From a virus, in the IMG/VR virus record IMGVR_UViG_3300045988_059421, positions 1-18,502 of that record: a DNA stretch of 18,502 bases; one strand, given 5' to 3'. Shown piece after piece: positions 159 to 18,502 of this stretch. The translations under genes were made by a program, and so were the position numbers. Within the stretch, counting starts at the first letter, position 1, and each line of letters opens with the position of its first letter. The notes under the pieces were generated by a model that saw nothing but the letters and a program-made list of their open reading frames with translations, was not told where the DNA came from and searched no databases.

Positions 159-191
159 ATAGACAGAAAAAAGGAAAGAGAGGTAAAGCAA

Positions 192-359
192 ATGAAAACA
201 AGAATCCATGAATACCCGTACAGCGAACGCGAAAACTACATAACGGGTAAAGAGTTGTTAGAAATATCCGGTGCTAAAATTTGGGCAGAAACTGAAAGCG
301 AAACAATATATACAATGGATGACGCAATATATATTATAGAATGGAGGAAAGCAAAATGA
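192..359 (+). CDS. Hypothetical small protein (55 aa)
   Basis: Hand-translated because it is below the ORF-track cutoff: MKTRIHEYPYSERENYITGKELLEISGAKIWAETESETIYTMDDAIYIIEWRKAK. GAGAGG lies upstream of the ATG. The stop TGA overlaps the next ATG (ATGA). Confidence 0.5.
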   Translation: MKTRIHEYPYSERENYITGKELLEISGAKIWAETESETIYTMDDAIYIIEWRKAK

Positions 360-517
360 GGGATAACATGAACATTTTTATAAATGCTTATATAGCATTG
401 TACGGGGGCACAAAAGGCAATGCGTGCAAAATATGGCGCGCCACTGATAAAGAATATCATGATTTAATTATTGATTCATTCAAGCAAAACGCGCATGCAG
501 CATTTTACAATGATTAA
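356..517 (+). CDS. Hypothetical small protein (53 aa)
   Basis: Hand-translated: MRDNMNIFINAYIALYGGTKGNACKIWRATDKEYHDLIIDSFKQNAHAAFYND. Strong RBS context GGAGGAAAGCAAAATG. ATGA coupling to the upstream ORF. Confidence 0.5.
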   Translation: MRDNMNIFINAYIALYGGTKGNACKIWRATDKEYHDLIIDSFKQNAHAAFYND

Positions 518-599
518 ACGGCGTTGTGTATGGAACAAATTTTGAAAACATCCTAAAAGCGTATGAAAATAATTAATTGACTAACAGGAGGAAAGCAAA

Positions 600-842
600 A
601 TGAAAAAGCGTGAATATTGCGAGAGCCACGAAACCATAGCATATTATAGCGGACTGAACGGACTGGAAATAAGGGGCATTGAACACGGCATGGAAGATTA
701 TGTATACTGTGTTTCGGGCGCTTGGGGCGGCAGCAAAGGTTTTCACCGTTGTAAAGTTTACTATTCCGTAAACGAAAGCCCATTCTTTAAGGTGCACGGC
801 TATAAAGTGCCACTTGATGAGTGCATTAGAACGGGGGTATAA
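600..842 (+). CDS. Hypothetical protein (80 aa)
   Basis: ORF-track ORF preceded by AGGAGGAAAGCAAAATG, the same initiation cassette as at 341-358. No recognisable motif. Confidence 0.7.
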   Translation: MKKREYCESHETIAYYSGLNGLEIRGIEHGMEDYVYCVSGAWGGSKGFHRCKVYYSVNESPFFKVHGYKVPLDECIRTGV

Positions 843-844
843 AT

Positions 845-1024
845 ATGATTGCAGTAACATACATAGAGCGCAGATTTATAGATCGTTTTACATGTATAGA
901 CACGGAACAAACTATAAAAGCATTATCATCATTTATTCAAGGCGATTTGACCTATTTTAGAATGAACCGTTTTAATTATAAAGTGATTGAAACTGATCTT
1001 ATAAAGTCAATAAAGGAAGTATAA
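845..1024 (+). CDS. Hypothetical small protein (59 aa)
   Basis: Hand-translated: MIAVTYIERRFIDRFTCIDTEQTIKALSSFIQGDLTYFRMNRFNYKVIETDLIKSIKEV. It starts 2 nt after the previous stop, has a weak GGGGT RBS and fills an otherwise empty gap. Confidence 0.45.
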   Translation: MIAVTYIERRFIDRFTCIDTEQTIKALSSFIQGDLTYFRMNRFNYKVIETDLIKSIKEV

Positions 1025-1091
1025 ACAGTCGAAACGGGCACAGACGCCCGTCTGCAACGGTCGGCGGCGTTGCACTGATGATGACACGCCA

Positions 1092-1115
1092 GAAAGGAAA
1101 ATGCAAAATGAAAAC
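1092..1115 (+). repeat. 24-nt initiation cassette, copy 1
   Basis: GAAAGGAAAATGCAAAATGAAAAC is identical to 1559-1582. It spans the RBS and the first three codons (MKT) of an unrelated ORF. Confidence 0.9.
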
Positions 1116-1497
1116 ACAGACAACGAAAAGAGCAATTATGAACGCATATCGCAACGTCATTAGAGTCGGCTACTGCGACTTGCAAGACGCTTTAAAATGG
1201 CGTGAACCAAATTTCTACACTGCGGGTGTGTACGGCTGGAATTCCGACGTTTACGTTATTGATGCCGATACCGTAATCGTAACCGGCTACAGACCGTTCG
1301 GAAACATGCAACTTCCGTGGGAAGTCATTGACGCGCTTAACGAATGCGCGGAAAGCATAACGCGTCATTTTGACTACGACATGGCGAAAATCTCTTTACG
1401 CAACAACCTTGACGAGTTAGCCAGCGGAATAGAATATGATTTAGATAGTTACGTTTTCGCAAGCGCGGACGAAAAGTTTGAAATCAAAAGAAAGTGA
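1108..1497 (+). CDS. Hypothetical protein (129 aa)
   Basis: The ORF-track ORF runs 1078-1497. The start was moved to the ATG at 1108 (MKTQTTKRAIMNAY...), which is preceded by GAAAGGAAAATGCAAAATG. The same 24-mer precedes the ORF at 1575. Contains GYCDLQ...GVYGWNSDVY...TGYRPFG, which I recall loosely from hypothetical proteins of Firmicutes mobile elements. Confidence 0.7.
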   Translation: MKTQTTKRAIMNAYRNVIRVGYCDLQDALKWREPNFYTAGVYGWNSDVYVIDADTVIVTGYRPFGNMQLPWEVIDALNECAESITRHFDYDMAKISLRNNLDELASGIEYDLDSYVFASADEKFEIKRK

Positions 1498-1558
1498 AAA
1501 TGTTCACAAATCGTTCATACGGTCTTCACAAACATAAAGTATACTATAATCATAAAAG

Positions 1559-1582
1559 GAAAGGAAAATGCAAAATGAAAAC
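1559..1582 (+). repeat. 24-nt initiation cassette, copy 2
   Basis: Identical to 1092-1115. Confidence 0.9.
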
Positions 1583-1751
1583 CATCAAAGACTACAACGG
1601 AAACAAGATTGACTTTGAAGCAGCTGTAATGCTTATGGATGATGAAATCAGAGAGCAGCTTCACGCCATGGGAATTGAAGACGAGCAGGAGTTTTACAAC
1701 GCGTATTGCGAAAAGCATTACGAGAAGTATAACGAAGAATTTGAAATCTAA
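1575..1751 (+). CDS. Small acidic hypothetical protein (58 aa)
   Basis: The ORF-track ORF runs 1494-1751. The likely true start is the ATG at 1575 (MKTIKDYNGNKIDFEAAVMLMDDEIREQLH...), behind the shared 24-mer RBS cassette. Very rich in D and E. Confidence 0.65.
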   Translation: MKTIKDYNGNKIDFEAAVMLMDDEIREQLHAMGIEDEQEFYNAYCEKHYEKYNEEFEI

Positions 1752-1844
1752 GCCGAAACGGGCGTAGGCTGTCTACGCGTCATAACTAGACGAGGGAGAC
1801 GAAAATTTTATTATGCAAGTGCTTTATAAAAGGAGTTATCTTGA

Positions 1845-2081
1845 ATGAAAATTATAAAGGAAAAGGCTACAGGTTGTTACAGTGTGTGGAACAGTGAAAA
1901 TCTTTATGCGATAATAGGCAAGCCAGAAGATCTTGCTAAAAGAAAGCTTATTAGCCCAGAAACGGCGATAATCAATGTCGGAAAATGGATAGCTGTTCTT
2001 GCGGAATTAGATAGCGGAATAATCGTGTTTGACAAACTTATGGACGCAAAGAGACATTATTGCAAACTTAAAGAGTGGTAA
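1845..2081 (+). CDS. Hypothetical protein (78 aa)
   Basis: ORF-track ORF with AAGGAG 9 nt upstream of the ATG. Confidence 0.7.
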   Translation: MKIIKEKATGCYSVWNSENLYAIIGKPEDLAKRKLISPETAIINVGKWIAVLAELDSGIIVFDKLMDAKRHYCKLKEW

Positions 2082-2086
2082 AAACC

Positions 2087-2287
2087 ATGAATCCAAACTG
2101 GGCAGACCTATTCAAAGCAAACCTTGTAAAACCCGCATGGGCGGATAACACCAAGGAAACCGAAATACCATTTGTAGTACACGCAATAGACAGTTGTATA
2201 GGCACAAACTGGAGAAAGGACGAAAACAACAATGAACAGTTATTTAGTAACAGTAACCGTAACAGACCCGGACAAAGGCAAGTATAG
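2087..2287 (+). CDS. Hypothetical protein (66 aa)
   Basis: The ORF-track ORF runs 2075-2287. The start at M5 (MNPNWADLFK...) avoids overlap with the previous gene. Its last 56 nt overlap the next ORF. Confidence 0.4.
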   Translation: MNPNWADLFKANLVKPAWADNTKETEIPFVVHAIDSCIGTNWRKDENNNEQLFSNSNRNRPGQRQV

Positions 2288-2417
2288 CATTGAAATACCC
2301 GTACAGGCAAAGACAGCGGCACACGCAAAACGCATAGCGCACAAAGCCGCAAGACAGATGGGCGCTTGCTATATCACAGATTTAACAGCAGAAAGGCGGT
2401 ACGAAAATGAAAATTGA
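2232..2417 (+). CDS. Hypothetical protein (61 aa)
   Basis: ORF-track ORF MNSYLVTVTVTDPDKGKYSIEIPVQAKTAAHAKRIAHKAARQ..., with GGAGAAAGGA upstream. Confidence 0.55.
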   Translation: MNSYLVTVTVTDPDKGKYSIEIPVQAKTAAHAKRIAHKAARQMGACYITDLTAERRYENEN

Positions 2418-2622
2418 GCGAAACCGAGATGTAGAACGCGACATTGCGTATTTGTTAAAGACGTTAGACACCGTGTACGAGACATGTTGTGAGAAATACG
2501 GTGGAAACTGCTATGAATGCCCGTTAGGCTGTTTAGGTGTGCTTGAAACGCAAACATGCTATGAAATTTCCAAACTGAAAAGCCGTTTGGAGTTAGTTTA
2601 TAAGGTGGTGGAAACAATATGA
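2407..2622 (+). CDS. Small Cys-rich protein, paralog 1 (71 aa)
   Basis: Contains VYETCCEKYGGNCYECPLGC...C. The C-x6-C-x2-CPL[GA] pattern is shared with the ORF at 3665. The YET motif is shared with the frame after the TGA at 2948. Confidence 0.65.
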   Translation: MKIERNRDVERDIAYLLKTLDTVYETCCEKYGGNCYECPLGCLGVLETQTCYEISKLKSRLELVYKVVETI

Positions 2623-2753
2623 TTATCGTTTTGTGTTTGAGCATTATAGCAGGAACGCTACTTTGCGGCCTTGCGCAGCTGCTCGAATGGATTGACCGTA
2701 CATACAACGATCACAAGTTGCTTAAAACATTAGGAAGGTGGATGAACTTATGA
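2619..2753 (+). CDS. Small single-pass membrane protein (44 aa)
   Basis: Hand-translated: MIIVLCLSIIAGTLLCGLAQLLEWIDRTYNDHKLLKTLGRWMNL. It has a hydrophobic N-terminal stretch of about 20 aa. ATGA overlaps occur at both ends. GGTGG lies upstream. Confidence 0.45.
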   Translation: MIIVLCLSIIAGTLLCGLAQLLEWIDRTYNDHKLLKTLGRWMNL

Positions 2754-2950
2754 GCCAAAACAAGCAAAAGGAACACGCTAATCATTATTTCGACCCGCGT
2801 GTTTTGGAGAATTATTGTCGGAATGACGTATTGCTTACGTTTGAGCTTGCAGGTCGTCAAGCGGGTAAACTCATAGCTAACGGAGAATTAGAGATGAAAC
2901 AAAATGAACTACAAGCAATGCTGCATGACGCAAACCAACTAATAAAGTGA
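2750..2950 (+). CDS. Hypothetical protein (66 aa) ending at an in-frame TGA; N-terminal part of Cys-rich paralog 2
   Basis: The ORF-track ORF runs 2738-2950. The ATG at 2750 is coupled (ATGA) to the previous stop and follows AGGAAGGTGG. The ATG at 2738 is an alternative start. The frame stays open for 50 more codons after the TGA. Confidence 0.6.
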   Translation: MSQNKQKEHANHYFDPRVLENYCRNDVLLTFELAGRQAGKLIANGELEMKQNELQAMLHDANQLIK

Positions 2951-3103
2951 ATATATGAAACGCAGGAATGTCAGAAGTCTGGGTGTGATGCACGGTGTCG
3001 TTATAACGCTATTTGTGAAGCGGCACATATGACATACAAACTAATAAAGCGTCAAGTTGACCTGTACAACATAAAAAGGAGCGTTAAATATGATAACAAT
3101 TAG
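2951..3103 (+). other. Open in-frame extension after TGA 2948-2950, encoding the Cys-rich module of paralog 2
   Basis: Hand-translated in the frame of the upstream ORF: IYETQECQKSGCDARCRYNAICEAAHMTYKLIKRQVDLYNIKRSVKYDNN*. No ATG, GTG or TTG lies upstream of the Cys motif. It aligns with IFDSPECKQHTDCTTDCKAYAIC of the ORF at 3090. Confidence 0.45.
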
Positions 3104-3311
3104 CACCCGATGCTATACCACTGAACAACTGAAATACCTTTTAGAGGGTTTGTCTTACTCGGCAGATAGAATATTTGACAGCCCAGAATGTAAACAACAT
3201 ACAGATTGCACGACGGACTGTAAAGCCTACGCAATATGTCATGACTTAGATAGTACAAGAGAATATATCTGGAAAAAGATAAAGGAGCGTGAAGCACTTG
3301 AATTACATTGA
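3090..3311 (+). CDS. Small Cys-rich protein, paralog 3 (73 aa)
   Basis: AAGGAG lies 8 nt upstream of the ATG. Contains ECKQHTDCTTDCKAYAIC (C-x5-C-x3-C-x5-C). Confidence 0.7.
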   Translation: MITISTRCYTTEQLKYLLEGLSYSADRIFDSPECKQHTDCTTDCKAYAICHDLDSTREYIWKKIKEREALELH

Positions 3312-3681
3312 GATACGCAAGAAAGTAAATGAAACCACCCCGCGCGGTGCATACAGAAGCGCCGTAAAGCTATACGCAATAGACATTTTAAACCGATTAG
3401 GCGACGCAGAAGCGCCGGACACGTTATCCGAGCTACATACCGAACTGCTCGACGGTTGTCTAAACTGGGTTGAATATAGCTATTGCGGCAAGGCGCTTGC
3501 AGACAGTTACAGCATAGCAGGACGCACTTGCAGCCCTACTACCTTAAAGCGTTTGCACGCCGGTGCAAAGCAGCCCGTAGGCTTTGGCACGTGGCTTGAT
3601 TATCAAGCAAGCGCGTTAAAACAAGCCGAAAAGCTTATCATACAAAAATATTGCGAGGTTAAAAATGAACATAGAGGATGA
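3289..3681 (+). CDS. Hypothetical protein (about 127-130 aa)
   Basis: The ORF track starts it at GTG 3289, which lies only 1 nt after AGGAG (3283-3287). TTG 3298 has better spacing. The motifs AYRSAVKLYAIDILN...LLDGCLNWVEYSYCG recall, from memory only, hypothetical proteins of Firmicutes conjugative elements. Confidence 0.7.
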   Translation: MKHLNYIEIRKKVNETTPRGAYRSAVKLYAIDILNRLGDAEAPDTLSELHTELLDGCLNWVEYSYCGKALADSYSIAGRTCSPTTLKRLHAGAKQPVGFGTWLDYQASALKQAEKLIIQKYCEVKNEHRG

Positions 3682-3880
3682 AGAACACAAAATTACATTT
3701 ACGTTTAAAAACGCAGAAGAACATAAGCGTTTTGTACAAGTTTTAAAACAAACAAGAGACTCTATTTGTGGCAGAAGCATTCTGCTTTGTAATGCTTGCC
3801 CCTTAGCAAAAATACATACAAAATCAGGTTCGGATTTGTGCGATGCTATAGACAAAATGTTTATATATTTGTCTATATAA
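3665..3880 (+). CDS. Small Cys-rich protein, paralog 4 (71 aa)
   Basis: GAGGT lies 5 nt upstream of the ATG. Contains CGRSILLCNACPLA...CDAIDKM, matching the C-x6-C-x2-CPL[GA]...C-x-x-I-x-K pattern of the ORF at 2407. Confidence 0.65.
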   Translation: MNIEDEEHKITFTFKNAEEHKRFVQVLKQTRDSICGRSILLCNACPLAKIHTKSGSDLCDAIDKMFIYLSI

Positions 3881-3888
3881 TAAACAAA

Positions 3889-3917
3889 GGCTCGAATACC
3901 ATTACGGTACTCGAGCC
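3889..3917. terminator. Bidirectional stem-loop terminator between the convergent left arm and late operon
   Basis: GGCTCGAATACC (3889-3900) pairs with GGTACTCGAGCC (3906-3917), giving a 12-bp stem with one mismatch and a 5-nt loop. T-rich flanks occur on both strands. It sits between the stop codons at 3880 (+) and 3936 (-). Confidence 0.6.
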
Positions 3918-3935
3918 ATTGCTATTTCAGATTAT

Positions 3936-5075
3936 TTACAACGTCCACTCACCAGAGTTTGTAGCCCATGCAGGCGGGTTAACCTGCTGCGTAGCAATAG
4001 CGGAGAACAACATGGAGTTATCAGACACGAAACCTACTGAACCGTTGTTTTTGAAAAACAGCTGTGCATTGAGAACAGCATCACCTGTTCCGGGTCCGGG
4101 AATCCAAAGCAAACCCGAAATGAGTTTGTCATTGGTAGGCGCGCCGTTATTTGCATCACCGGCAGCGGAAACGTAGGACGTTCGCGGCATTAACTCAAAC
4201 TTAAGGCAGTTTTGAGTAGTAGCTCCAAGCAGGGAAGAAATTTGGCGCTTTGCATCCAGCGACATAGTAAACCGTTCGCGCCAGTTACCCGACACGGAAA
4301 CGGAATTATCCTGTCCAAACACACGACACACGCCATAACAGATAATAGCGCTGTCACCCGCAGAGGGGAACGAAAGCATGTCCAGAATAACCTTTTTGTA
4401 ATACTTCGTTCCTGTCATGGTGAACGACTTATAGTTAAATTCCGGGTACTTCTTAATCATGTTCTCGAGCGCGGCTACACGTTTAGTCAAAGAACTGATA
4501 TTGGAGTTTATGCTGCTAATCTGTCCGTTAACTTCGTCTTTCCACTGGTTATACTGGTTTGTAAAATCAGTTTTCCACGTGTTGAACTCATTATTCGTAC
4601 TCGAGGTGTACGTGTTGAACATCTGATCAATGCGCGTGTTAGCATTGTTTACAAAATCGTTAAACTTTTTGTTTAAATTATTTGTAGTGTTTGTAGCGTA
4701 GTCGTTAAACCACTGCTGTAAGGTAGTGTTTGTATTATTTTTATACTCTTCGAACCTGTTCCAAAGCTCCTGCGTAAGGTCGTCGAAGTGCTGTTCCATG
4801 TGCGCTTCAAACCTTGCGATTTCCGCGTTAACCCAGTCTTGCAGGTCTTTATAGGCTTTGTGTAAAGCGTCGATGTTATCCTGCATCTTTTCGAGTTCCT
4901 CAACCATTTTGTTAAGGAACGCCGCAAGCTTGCACAGCACTTCATAATAACTCAAACTCTGGTCATAGACAGCGGGAAGAACTTTCTGACACCAAAAGCG
5001 CAGATAAGGAATGCCGTCATACTTTTTTAAAATCGGGTCAAAGTTAGCGGGTGTGAAATTGTTGTCGTTCGGCAT
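3936..5075 (-). CDS. Tail fibre / receptor-binding protein (379 aa), in the phi29 gp12 appendage position
   Basis: Last gene of the late operon, after the lower collar gene. The N-terminus carries the YDQSLSYYEVLCKL motif typical of Firmicutes phage fibre anchor domains. It is followed by a long Asn-rich coiled-coil-like repeat region and then a distinct C-terminal domain. RBS AAAGGTGG. Confidence 0.65.
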   Translation of the reverse strand: MPNDNNFTPANFDPILKKYDGIPYLRFWCQKVLPAVYDQSLSYYEVLCKLAAFLNKMVEELEKMQDNIDALHKAYKDLQDWVNAEIARFEAHMEQHFDDLTQELWNRFEEYKNNTNTTLQQWFNDYATNTTNNLNKKFNDFVNNANTRIDQMFNTYTSSTNNEFNTWKTDFTNQYNQWKDEVNGQISSINSNISSLTKRVAALENMIKKYPEFNYKSFTMTGTKYYKKVILDMLSFPSAGDSAIICYGVCRVFGQDNSVSVSGNWRERFTMSLDAKRQISSLLGATTQNCLKFELMPRTSYVSAAGDANNGAPTNDKLISGLLWIPGPGTGDAVLNAQLFFKNNGSVGFVSDNSMLFSAIATQQVNPPAWATNSGEWTL

Positions 5076-14471: not shown

Positions 14472-16454
14472 TCAGTGCATTTCAAATGTCGTATCAGCTA
14501 AGATAACACCACCTTTAATGCGCTTTTGTGAAAGCTTGCCCGGTATCATAATGCCGGGTACAAAGTCGGATATGCTACGAGGTTCACGGATAAATTCAAG
14601 TTCTTCGGGTGTGTAATTTTCTGGGTTCTTCTCTGTGTCGTAGTCCTGCTCTACGGAATGTATAAACAGTTGTTTAACGGTTTTATTTGCACCTGCGCAT
14701 GTTACATTGTAATATGGTTTTTCAATCGGTTCGCCGTCCTCATGTGTAACGTGCTCAATATAGGTTTTCTGACGCGTGAAAAATCCAACGTCCCAGTTTG
14801 TTTCATTCTTCCAGCAACAGTAATTACGGGGATGCAGCTGCACACCTTTTATCTTGTCTAATGGTAAGTCAAGATGCAAGCTGTCAGTATCTGCATATAT
14901 AAAGCCGGGGTTATCAACACCGTAGTAATTCTGTTGTGCGGCGGTAATTGTAAAGTTACGTGCGTAACTGGTAATCGCCGCTCCACATGCAATGTAGCCC
15001 GGTGTTTTTTCGTTTTCCGCGACAGTGAAGAAACCGACTACGCCGTTAGGTTTTAGCATAGCAACCTTGTACGAACTTATTGTAGATGCCGCTTGTTTTC
15101 CGTATAGGTTATTGCTGTATAATTTTGCCACTGTTCTAATGCCCTTGTTTGGAGCATTGATTTTCATTTCACGATATTTGTTTAAGTATTTGTCGTAGAT
15201 GCCTTGTTGTGCTTCAAAATAACAGCCGTCCAAAATTTCGGGGTCAATTATAATGTAATGCTTTTTAAACAGTTCGTAGTCTGTCATGGTCATTGTCATG
15301 GTCACGTATGTGTCGTGCTTCTTGCCGCATTGGTCTACCCATTCGGACACGTAGCGCTTCTGGTTTTCGTCCCATACGTCAGAAGTAGTTAAGCTTTCGT
15401 TTTGTCTGTAATGCAGATTTTTCTTTAGCTGAATAAAAGGTAGATACCCGACCTTTAACCTAAAACGACAACGCAGACGCACGTAGTAATACAGACCAAC
15501 TAAAGGGTTATGTAACTTTAATCGTTCCTGTCTTTCCGCTTCAACTGCCTTTAAGCCCTCTTCGCCGCTAAAAAATTCAGGCTTTCCAACAGGGTAATAA
15601 TTTCCACTATCACTGTGCATCATGGACGGGTATAGGGAGTTTACATCCAGCGTCAAACCGTTTTTATAAACCTTGCATTGTTTGCCTTGCACGACATGAC
15701 ACCACCCGCCACGGTATGCCTTGCGTATATATTCATCTGCATTTGTAGCGCCGTAACGTTCGGGATCAAGCGGAATGTCGTAGAGGTTCGGGAACAAGTC
15801 TTCGTAAACATGACGATTATATCCGGACTTAAATTCACTCATGCAGCACGCGCCGATTGTAAGTTTTTTGTGACCGTCCGCAAACATAAATTCAATAGCT
15901 TCTTTAACAACAAGAACATCATTTTTGATATAGTGTTCTTCTTCTGGGGTAATGTTGTACCCAGCATGGCGTTCGCCTTTGTATTCAATCGTGCTCTTTC
16001 TGTGTTTGGTGTTAAAGCTTTTGCCCATGTCTGCTACGGAGAGGGGGATAAGCTTATAACTGTCGCGGAACTCTATAAGACTTCTTTGGGTTTTAACAGT
16101 CATCGTATACCATTGTCCCATATCGGATATGCTGTACTTAAACGTGTTAGGCTTCATATCATTTGTTTCGAAAAACATAGTGTGTTCAACTTTGCCATCG
16201 GGTGTGTAGGTTGCTTGTGCGTAGTCATCGCGCTTCAATAGGTAATCGAGAATGTAAGAAAAGTCAAAAGCGCCATTATGAAAGTATACAATATTTTTAC
16301 CTTTTAACTGTTCTACCCAGTCCCAGTATTTATCTATTGAATTTACAACAAGCACATCTTCTGTATGTATTTTAACACATGCCGCCGCCCAGACTTCCGT
16401 TTCGGTTTGCCCGTCGTATACGCTTGTCTCAAAATCACATACGTAATAATTCAT
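14472..16454 (-). CDS. Protein-primed family B DNA polymerase (660 aa)
   Basis: Exonuclease motifs: ExoI CDFETS, ExoII HNGAFDFSYIL, ExoIII YIKNDVLVV. Polymerase motifs: LDVNSLYPS (motif A), KLYSNNLYGK (motif B), YADTDS (motif C) and QKTY (KxY). The 4-nt ATGA overlap with the upstream terminal protein gene matches phi29 genes 3 and 2. Confidence 0.95.
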   Translation of the reverse strand: MNYYVCDFETSVYDGQTETEVWAAACVKIHTEDVLVVNSIDKYWDWVEQLKGKNIVYFHNGAFDFSYILDYLLKRDDYAQATYTPDGKVEHTMFFETNDMKPNTFKYSISDMGQWYTMTVKTQRSLIEFRDSYKLIPLSVADMGKSFNTKHRKSTIEYKGERHAGYNITPEEEHYIKNDVLVVKEAIEFMFADGHKKLTIGACCMSEFKSGYNRHVYEDLFPNLYDIPLDPERYGATNADEYIRKAYRGGWCHVVQGKQCKVYKNGLTLDVNSLYPSMMHSDSGNYYPVGKPEFFSGEEGLKAVEAERQERLKLHNPLVGLYYYVRLRCRFRLKVGYLPFIQLKKNLHYRQNESLTTSDVWDENQKRYVSEWVDQCGKKHDTYVTMTMTMTDYELFKKHYIIIDPEILDGCYFEAQQGIYDKYLNKYREMKINAPNKGIRTVAKLYSNNLYGKQAASTISSYKVAMLKPNGVVGFFTVAENEKTPGYIACGAAITSYARNFTITAAQQNYYGVDNPGFIYADTDSLHLDLPLDKIKGVQLHPRNYCCWKNETNWDVGFFTRQKTYIEHVTHEDGEPIEKPYYNVTCAGANKTVKQLFIHSVEQDYDTEKNPENYTPEELEFIREPRSISDFVPGIMIPGKLSQKRIKGGVILADTTFEMH

Positions 16455-17167
16455 GCTTGCACGTCTCCAAACGCTTCATTTAGTTTCATCATTTCTTCGA
16501 CACCGGATTTCCTATGCTTATAAAAATCAGAAAGCCAGCGCCCCGCCGCAGTTGTGTCGTTTGCTTCTTGAGATGTTAAAGTACCTGCTACAACACCGAT
16601 TTCATTTAGCATGTACGCGAATACTGTGTCACCTTCATTTTTGCCATAAAGGTTTTGTAGGTTGTAGCGTTCTTCGCGTAATTTTTTTATAATGTATTCC
16701 ATACCCGCATGCCTCTTTTCATCCGTTGCCCAACACGCATTAGCTTTTATAAAATTCGAAAACGCAAGGGACGCTTCGTTTATATCCGCTAAGGGTGCAT
16801 TGTTAAGTGCAAGAGTTATGTTGCTTTCAACACCTGTTGAACTTGTAACCGTAAATTGCGTAAAGCCTAACTTGTTAAACTGCGCTCTTGCAGCTTTGGG
16901 TATGTCTGCAAACGGAATAGCTTCACCATTCTGTGCTTCTGCATATAACGCGCTGTCCGTAATGTCTTTAAGTTCTTGCTTTAATTTATCAAGCATTTTC
17001 TTTGTTATTCTTTCGGGACGTTCAAAAGCGCTGAATAAATCTTTAGCCGTATATTGCGATTTGTAACCCTTTTTCAAGTATCGGTTATAGCGCTGTCTTG
17101 CGTTTTTAATCAAGCGTCCAAATTCTGCTTGATTAGGAGTCAATTTTTTCGATGATTTTTTAGCCAT
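16451..17167 (-). CDS. Terminal protein (phi29 gp3-like, 238 aa)
   Basis: It lies directly upstream of the polymerase gene and is translationally coupled to it. The N-terminus MAKKSSKKLTPNQAEFGRLIKNARQRYNRYLKKGY parallels phi29 TP MARSPRIRIKDNDKAEYARLVKNTKAKISRTKKKYG, recalled from memory. The RAQFNK motif is shared. Confidence 0.75.
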   Translation of the reverse strand: MAKKSSKKLTPNQAEFGRLIKNARQRYNRYLKKGYKSQYTAKDLFSAFERPERITKKMLDKLKQELKDITDSALYAEAQNGEAIPFADIPKAARAQFNKLGFTQFTVTSSTGVESNITLALNNAPLADINEASLAFSNFIKANACWATDEKRHAGMEYIIKKLREERYNLQNLYGKNEGDTVFAYMLNEIGVVAGTLTSQEANDTTAAGRWLSDFYKHRKSGVEEMMKLNEAFGDVQA

Positions 17168-18467: not shown

Positions 18468-18502
18468 GTTAGTTGTGACTTACGCTCGTTCTTACCACTG
18501 CT
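18468..18502. repeat. Right inverted terminal repeat (35 bp, perfect)
   Basis: Exact reverse complement of 1-35. Confidence 0.95.

Follow-up and report, generated by a model that had tools for sequence, protein, structure and literature searches.

Stop codons inside otherwise open reading frames are known from several phage and bacterial systems. The classical 'sus' nonsense mutants of the phi29 family and the in-frame stops that occur naturally in prokaryotic genes share one form: a one-base change from a sense codon to a stop codon, followed by a clean downstream frame (PMC7918605). Belinky et al. (2021) found phage and mobilome genes to be over-represented among such natural in-frame stops, and, because a substantial fraction of the in-frame stops in databases may be artefacts, analysed only those common to two or more species (PMC7918605). 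A UGA that interrupts a frame need not terminate every ribosome, since in bacteria readthrough of UGA ranges from less than 1% to several per cent, and is higher under stress (PMC11126739).

Two further systems place a stop codon ahead of, or within, a conserved coding region by other means. In phage Q-beta, the UGA at the end of the coat gene precedes the open in-frame extension that makes up the A1 readthrough protein; this UGA is conserved, and infectivity depends on the extension. Stop-codon recoding occurs in some gut phages, in which TGA may be read as Trp or Gly and TAG as Gln; in recoded genomes in-frame stops are numerous, genes are not terminated by the recoded codon and suppressor tRNAs are often encoded. 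Phages may also carry arrays of small, shuffled early genes, many of them serving in anti-defence or host takeover, with variable gene content and chimeras at gene junctions.

Here we examine an in-frame TGA in an early gene of a gut phage (IMG/VR record IMGVR_UViG_3300045988_059421; the whole stretch of DNA analysed, 18,502 bp long, is called the window below). The locus resembles the 'sus' mutants and the natural in-frame stops in its one-base change and clean downstream frame; whereas the 'sus' mutants were selected in the laboratory and lie in essential genes, this stop is a natural one, in a small, probably accessory gene, and whereas the stops of Belinky et al. are common to at least two species, this one is a singleton (PMC7918605). 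As in the Q-beta coat gene, an open and homologous extension continues the frame past the UGA, and decoding by near-cognate tRNA-Trp would give a longer, minor product; unlike the conserved Q-beta stop, however, this one occurs in no relative examined, and the 'extension' normally belongs to an uninterrupted ORF or forms a gene of its own. It also resembles the reassigned stops of gut phages, in that it falls inside a conserved coding region, but none of the hallmarks of recoded genomes listed above holds in the window. The surrounding operon compares well with a shuffled early-gene array, having variable content, junction chimeras and an AcrIC5-family homologue, although the protein family affected here matches no Pfam, PHROG or PADLOC family and lacks a structural neighbour.

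Genome context

The window ends in an exact 35-bp inverted terminal repeat (positions 1-35 and 18468-18502; AGCAGTGGTAAGAACGAGCGTAAGTCACAACTAAC), which gives it the appearance of a complete linear genome of the protein-primed kind. In the syntenic relative L012, Pfam recognises Phage_connector, phi29_gp9_C, Phi29_MCP/Big_2, Peptidase_M23, Glyco_hydro_25 and Podovirus_Gp16, and ORFs of the window match these genes in size and order; a weak match to Phi29_Phage_SSB was found in the window itself. Two ORFs of 660 and 238 amino acids (14472-17167) were read, from size and position only, as a putative protein-primed polymerase and a putative terminal protein, the latter returning no Pfam match. The relatives originate from human gut metagenomes, and the window appears to be the complete, ∼18.5-kb genome of a phi29-like gut podophage. 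The interrupted ORF sits in its left-hand early operon (about 190-3880, plus strand), a string of small ORFs.

One of these, a 59-aa ORF at 1572-1751 (plus strand), matches the Pfam anti-CRISPR family AcrIC5 (PF22147; 71.2 bits against a cut-off of 27, E = 7.6e-20), which also occurs in the same operon of relatives.

An in-frame TGA interrupts an early-operon gene

Translation of positions 2750-3103 (plus strand) reads MSQNK...LHDANQLIK*IYETQECQKSGCDARCRYNAICEAAH...KYDNN*: the frame meets a TGA at 2948-2950, stays open for 50 more codons and is closed by a TAG at 3101-3103. The parts into which the stop divides the locus are as follows.

2750..2950, plus strand: present ORF of 66 amino acids, comprising an N-terminal module (N-module, residues 1-48) and the first 18 residues of helix 1 of a cysteine-containing module (Cys module)
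2948..2950, plus strand: premature TGA stop, differing from the CGA (Arg67) of relatives by C to T at 2948
2951..3103, plus strand: presumed untranslated remnant of 50 intact codons and the TAG, containing all family-invariant residues
3090..3311, plus strand: neighbouring Cys-module paralogue of 73 amino acids, whose Shine-Dalgarno (SD) sequence AGGAG (3076-3080) and ATG fall within the last part of the interrupted ORF

By itself, a run of 50 open codons is unremarkable (P ∼0.08, estimated from the window's own stop-to-stop intervals), and its length is not decisive; the interruption was judged real because homology crosses the stop. The stop-spanning stretch aligned with one relative at 88% amino-acid identity (tblastn, E = 1e-40), and an intact ORF of 117 amino acids is present in relatives. 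The TGA at 2948-2950 interrupts an ORF with homology on both sides.

A first-pass annotation, made from the sequence alone, had described the TGA with its 50 open codons and had stated that no ATG, GTG or TTG precedes the downstream cysteine motif; the translation bears out both points, in that the six in-frame codons between the TGA and the first Cys are ATA TAT GAA ACG CAG GAA, none of them a start codon of these three kinds. The earliest in-frame ATG past the stop is codon 94, 3' of the motif, and an ATG at 2955 lies in a different frame that runs for only 25 codons. Reinitiation past the TGA was rejected, there being no in-frame start ahead of the cysteine motif. The same annotation had aligned the downstream piece, across the stop, with the next gene (3090-3311), and this homology was recovered by BLASTP (E = 1e-5) and hhalign (probability 92.8%, E = 3.9e-7, residues 5-54 against 13-63), with the stop position opposite the Arg of ...ADRIF... 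in the paralogue. A further proposed alignment, with YLLKTLDT in the gene at 2407-2622, failed to reappear (no BLASTP match; hhalign probability 0.2%). Paralogy of the Cys module with 2407-2622 and with 3665-3880 was undetectable by BLASTP and hhalign, and these two genes match each other weakly (hhalign probability 37%).

Codon 67 in relatives

We compared the DNA of codon 67 in 13 relatives (L001 and L003-L014). The codon is CGA in every one of them, and TGA in the window alone. Protein relatives were collected by a profile search of a protein collection, which returned 50 proteins, none of which ends at ...NQLIK. Among the aligned cluster representatives, the stop position is Arg in 37 of 39 and Ile in the remaining two, which represent a divergent allele; the 37 read ...KRIY/F/H..., five of them being standalone or N-terminally shortened proteins. 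When only the representatives of 94-117 amino acids that span both modules are counted (n = 34), 32 contain ...NQLIKRIYET... and two have Ile. An orthologous stop at codon 67 is thus absent from the 13 relatives with DNA and from the 37 close cluster representatives. The ancestral CGA is one mutational step from TGA and the stop is confined to a single lineage; with CGA in 13 of 13 relatives and TGA in the window only, one C-to-T transition at 2948 accounts for the difference. The comparison of related genomes at this codon had been proposed in the first-pass annotation, and its outcome fits two of the explanations offered there, a very recent nonsense mutation and an assembly or population variant.

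No second genome or assembly of the same strain carrying the T was found in exact-protein look-ups, IMG/VR scans or GenBank phage records. Exact-protein look-ups for five ORFs of the window returned no match, and no protein identical to the 66-aa truncated product is on record in the assembly collection. The exact pattern around the stop had no match in IMG/VR; a looser pattern gave seven, of which one was genuine, an already-known relative. Close DNA relatives were absent from GenBank phage records (blastn at distant sensitivity, query 2300-4000), and a scan of species-representative genomes had no match for the same strain or the same stop. A metagenome scan gave at least one relative among the matches listed, with its ORF intact.

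The T at 2948 might then be an error in the consensus or the assembly, or a minority allele, in which case the true gene would be the intact 117-aa ORF. The change is a single-base substitution seen once, the truncated protein is on record in no other assembly and the downstream frame is flawless; moreover, many in-frame stops in databases may be artefacts (Belinky et al. 2021, PMC7918605), although phage and mobilome genes commonly carry genuine nonsense polymorphisms (PMC7918605). The assembly gives no impression of being error-prone, because all large genes of the window are intact, which, together with the exactness of the 35-bp terminal repeats, argues mildly against an error. In a consensus of reasonable depth, substitution errors are rare. 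We consider an erroneous or minority base unlikely, while giving it real weight. It is probable, in our view, that the TGA is a recent nonsense substitution (CGA Arg67 to TGA) in a dispensable accessory gene. A premature stop of this sort, found in one genome and lying in an accessory gene, is a kind of polymorphism common in phage genomes.

The downstream frame and its selective history

The 50 codons past the stop are free of indels and of further stops and retain all four Cys codons. Changes unique to the window are few in this gene; 3' of the stop they are limited to codon 75, a hypervariable position (G, A, R or W in relatives), and two synonymous sites. Comparison of the window with each relative gave Nei-Gojobori dN/dS values of 0.11-0.29 over codons 68-112 and of 0.08-0.29 over the N-module; as the relatives are free of the stop, the values for the remnant reflect the history before the mutation, with ∼4 lineage-specific changes in 150 nt. 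Since the remnant is undamaged and its dN/dS lies in the range of the N-module, the stop is either very recent or a consensus or population variant. Purifying selection seems to have been in force while nearly all of the divergence arose, and the stop is probably young relative to the window-relative pS of 0.15-0.33. With ∼4 lineage-specific changes in 150 nt, a very recent stop and a frame still under selection are inseparable by this measure, and leaky readthrough would look alike.

The interrupted ORF appears to join two modules

An exhaustive profile search, covering 1.84 billion representatives, found relatives of either half of the 117-aa ORF as proteins of their own. Distant standalone relatives of ∼68 amino acids align with profile positions 49-117, beginning at their own first residue, and standalone proteins of ∼50 amino acids match positions 1-48 (P0133, P0135 and P0140, each of 51-52 amino acids, belong here, P0133 matching only positions 1-37). 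In relatives L015 (498-707) and L016 (2266-2484), standalone Cys modules of 69 and 72 amino acids occupy the same genomic slot, directly after a gene for a 44-aa membrane protein, the N-module having been deleted. The reciprocal arrangement is found in P0041-P0049, in which the N-module stands alone (∼50 amino acids) or is joined to unrelated C-termini; in P0047, a natural chimera, the N-module is joined to the C-terminal part of the gene that follows the interrupted ORF (3090-3311). Because both modules occur as separate genes in relatives, the 117-aa ORF is best read as an in-frame fusion of a ∼48-aa N-module and a ∼69-aa four-cysteine module.

2750..2893, plus strand: N-module, codons 1-48, MSQNK...KGELE; in relatives also found alone, as an ORF of ∼50 amino acids, or joined to other C-termini
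2882..2896, plus strand: SD-like GGAG (2882-2885), 8-nt spacer and ATG of Met49 (2894-2896), read from sequence; corresponds to the start of the module where this is a separate gene
2894..3103, plus strand: equivalent of a Cys-module gene, 69 codons, broken at its own codon 19 by the TGA; compare the standalone ∼68-aa relatives
2969..3016, plus strand: motif C-x4-C-x3-C-x5-C (Cys74, 79, 83 and 89), at the predicted hairpin turn

The first-pass annotation had seen the stop as interrupting one domain architecture. The interruption holds, but the ORF appears to be a fusion of two modules, and the unit that is broken would be the ∼69-aa Cys module starting at Met49 (2894). The SD-like GGAG ahead of Met49 is kept in 7 of the 12 relatives listed, the other 5 having AGAG; as the motif is only partly conserved, use of the internal Met49 start in the fused form is advanced here as a hypothesis.

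The four-cysteine module and the predicted effect of its truncation

Among close relatives, Cys74, Cys79 and Cys89 are invariant and Cys83 is nearly so. In the wider family, invariance is limited to the columns of the four Cys and one Ile, all of them 3' of the stop in the window; the position of the stop itself is occupied by varying residues (Q, I, V, T, S or L). An AlphaFold model of the standalone Cys module (pLDDT 90.4, pTM 0.73) contains a helix at residues 3-21, a short helix at 24-29, a loop and a helix at 38-67. The model of the full 117-aa protein was of low confidence (pLDDT 65) and was used for secondary structure only; both models place the Cys motif in the connection between two long helices. 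We suspect, from the conservation pattern, that the four invariant cysteines form a zinc site.

The module gave no significant match to Pfam, PHROG or PADLOC and no match to the PDB by sequence, and a Foldseek search of the PDB returned generic helical hairpins only (E of at least 2.6). The context gained is thus that of an uncharacterised and highly shuffled family of ∼68-aa proteins, predicted to form four-cysteine helical hairpins, in the early operon of gut phi29-like phages. A role in anti-defence or host takeover would be a guess, made because the AcrIC5-family homologue shares the operon; if these small proteins are anti-defence factors, natural knockouts could help to show which of them are dispensable.

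In the models, the stop falls at the end of helix 1, so that whichever start is used the product is predicted to be without the Cys loop and the second helix. If the TGA is indeed a recent nonsense substitution, the course of events would be short. A single, lineage-specific and very recent C-to-T transition at 2948, real in the phage as opposed to a consensus error, would leave the mutant genome making a 66-aa product, consisting of the N-module and 18 helix residues; the four-cysteine helical-hairpin module would no longer be made, whether from Met1 or from the internal Met49; and the UGA would be misread as Trp by a small fraction of ribosomes at most. Such a loss of the Cys module would have to be tolerated, which is plausible because a paralogue adjoins the interrupted gene and because members of the array vary among relatives by presence, absence and frameshift. 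Deletions of the N-module, ORFs made up of the N-module only, the frameshifted protein P0072 (described next) and the adjoining paralogue plausibly point to the gene being dispensable.

In P0072, a 93-aa protein from ENA contigs, a frameshift just after the second Cys leads into the +1 frame (...SGCVHGAVITLFAKRHI). P0072 appears to represent an independent natural disruption of the same Cys module.

Readthrough, reassignment and selenocysteine

A stop followed by an intact and conserved frame also raises the question of whether the TGA is decoded. Folding of the 81 nt from 2940 to 3020 gave -11.2 kcal/mol against a mean of -13.3 for shuffled sequences (z = +0.86), so that no RNA structure beyond chance follows the stop, and no Rfam element was found in the stop region. 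The base that follows the stop is A (UGA-A). ARAGORN detected no tRNA or tmRNA genes in the window. Both in the orthologues and in the paralogue at 3090-3311, the stop aligns with Arg, as opposed to Trp, Gly or Cys. A readthrough-stimulating structure and a SECIS element were rejected on the folding result, which is no better than that of shuffled sequence. Programmed UGA readthrough yielding a short and a long isoform, the first possibility raised in the first-pass annotation, finds no support in these results, there being no relative with the stop, no favourable fold and no suppressor tRNA.

A less elaborate form of readthrough would be a leaky UGA kept by selection, giving mostly the 66-aa product and a few per cent of a full-length protein with Trp67, and thereby attenuating expression. 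UGA is the leakiest bacterial stop and is mostly read as Trp (PMC11126739), which the variable residue at this position in the wider family suggests might be tolerated; past the stop the frame is undamaged and its dN/dS low, and in bacteria, in-frame stops followed by sequence under purifying selection have been reported to be common (PMC7918605). Low dN/dS is, however, explained by the history before the mutation, a stimulatory structure is absent, and with the stop in none of the 13 relatives with DNA and none of the 37 close representatives there is no sign of maintenance; in relatives the two modules are expressed from a single uninterrupted ORF or from a gene each, and never across a stop. 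Being in no relative, the stop also falls outside the sharing rule of Belinky et al. (PMC7918605), and a leaky terminator is a reading without positive support, to which we assign little probability. Very improbable, too, is a newly arisen switch of the Q-beta type in a DNA phage, in which the UGA would set the ratio of an abundant N-module to a scarce full-length Trp67 protein.

Decoding of the TGA as a regular event, through reassignment (code 4 or 25, or recoding of late genes) or as selenocysteine, could be suggested by the recoding known in some gut phages and by the Cys-rich character of the interrupted protein. TGA nevertheless closes 11 of the 29 listed genes, several times within ATGA start-stop overlaps, and TAA closes the other 18, in keeping with the first-pass statements that the other genes end normally, several of them at TGA, and that the genome as a whole is not recoded. 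The in-frame TGA is the single case in the genome, and it stands at an Arg position. Reassignment is contradicted by the 11 TGA terminators, this single in-frame TGA opposite Arg and the lack of a tRNA gene; selenocysteine was rejected in view of the alignment of the UGA with Arg, the lack of a significant hairpin and the lack of an Rfam match in the region. Programmed readthrough, codon reassignment and selenocysteine insertion are thus not supported, and the latter two are effectively ruled out. With a recent nonsense substitution as the probable explanation, 2750-3103 should be annotated as a disrupted gene, or base 2948 be checked, and the locus should not be taken as an example of recoding.

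A shuffled array of small early genes

The array that holds the interrupted ORF consists of tandem ORFs of ∼45-130 amino acids with overlapping start and stop signals, and the presence or absence of its members varies between close relatives. The gene at 2407-2622, for example, is missing from L001, and the slot of the paralogue at 3090 contains no called gene in L012.

Many of the small genes of the array end in the peptide ...KGELKDDNN (2750-3311; P0033, P0047, P0050, P0133 and P0134-P0153). At junctions of the P0050 type, the DNA for KGELKDDNN seems, as judged by back-translation only, to encode the SD sequence and ATG of the next gene as well. Numerous chimeras and deletions break at or near these junctions, which may serve as recombination cassettes that shuffle the array. 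P0050 itself (73 amino acids) is a chimera of an N-terminal part with the PP-loop motif SGGKDS and the second half of the N-module, its N-terminus matching the PAPS-reductase family phrog_424 of PHROG weakly (E = 0.0012).

Other elements of the early operon

A type II hammerhead ribozyme (RF02276) was found at 1027-1093 (plus strand), in an intergenic gap of the early operon, as a full-length match scoring 38.5 bits against a gathering threshold of 37. Relatives carry one to three copies, likewise between small early genes: L005 at 514-579, 1176-1241 and 1864-1929, L001 at 349-414 and 605-670, and L016 at 777-841. We know of no earlier mention of this arrangement in phi29-like phages. It is of a known kind, since Perreault et al. 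(2011; PMC3088659) described phage transcripts in which hammerheads flank single genes.

The 24-nt sequence GAAAGGAAAATGCAAAATGAAAAC is repeated exactly and in direct orientation at 1092-1115 and 1559-1582, where it contains an SD-like motif and the start codon of two different ORFs; its first copy (1092-1115) starts at the 3' edge of the hammerhead. At the far end of the operon, between the convergent early (plus-strand) and late (minus-strand) blocks, a hairpin at 3889-3917 with a 13-bp GC-rich stem and a T-rich tail is likely to be a transcription terminator shared by the two.
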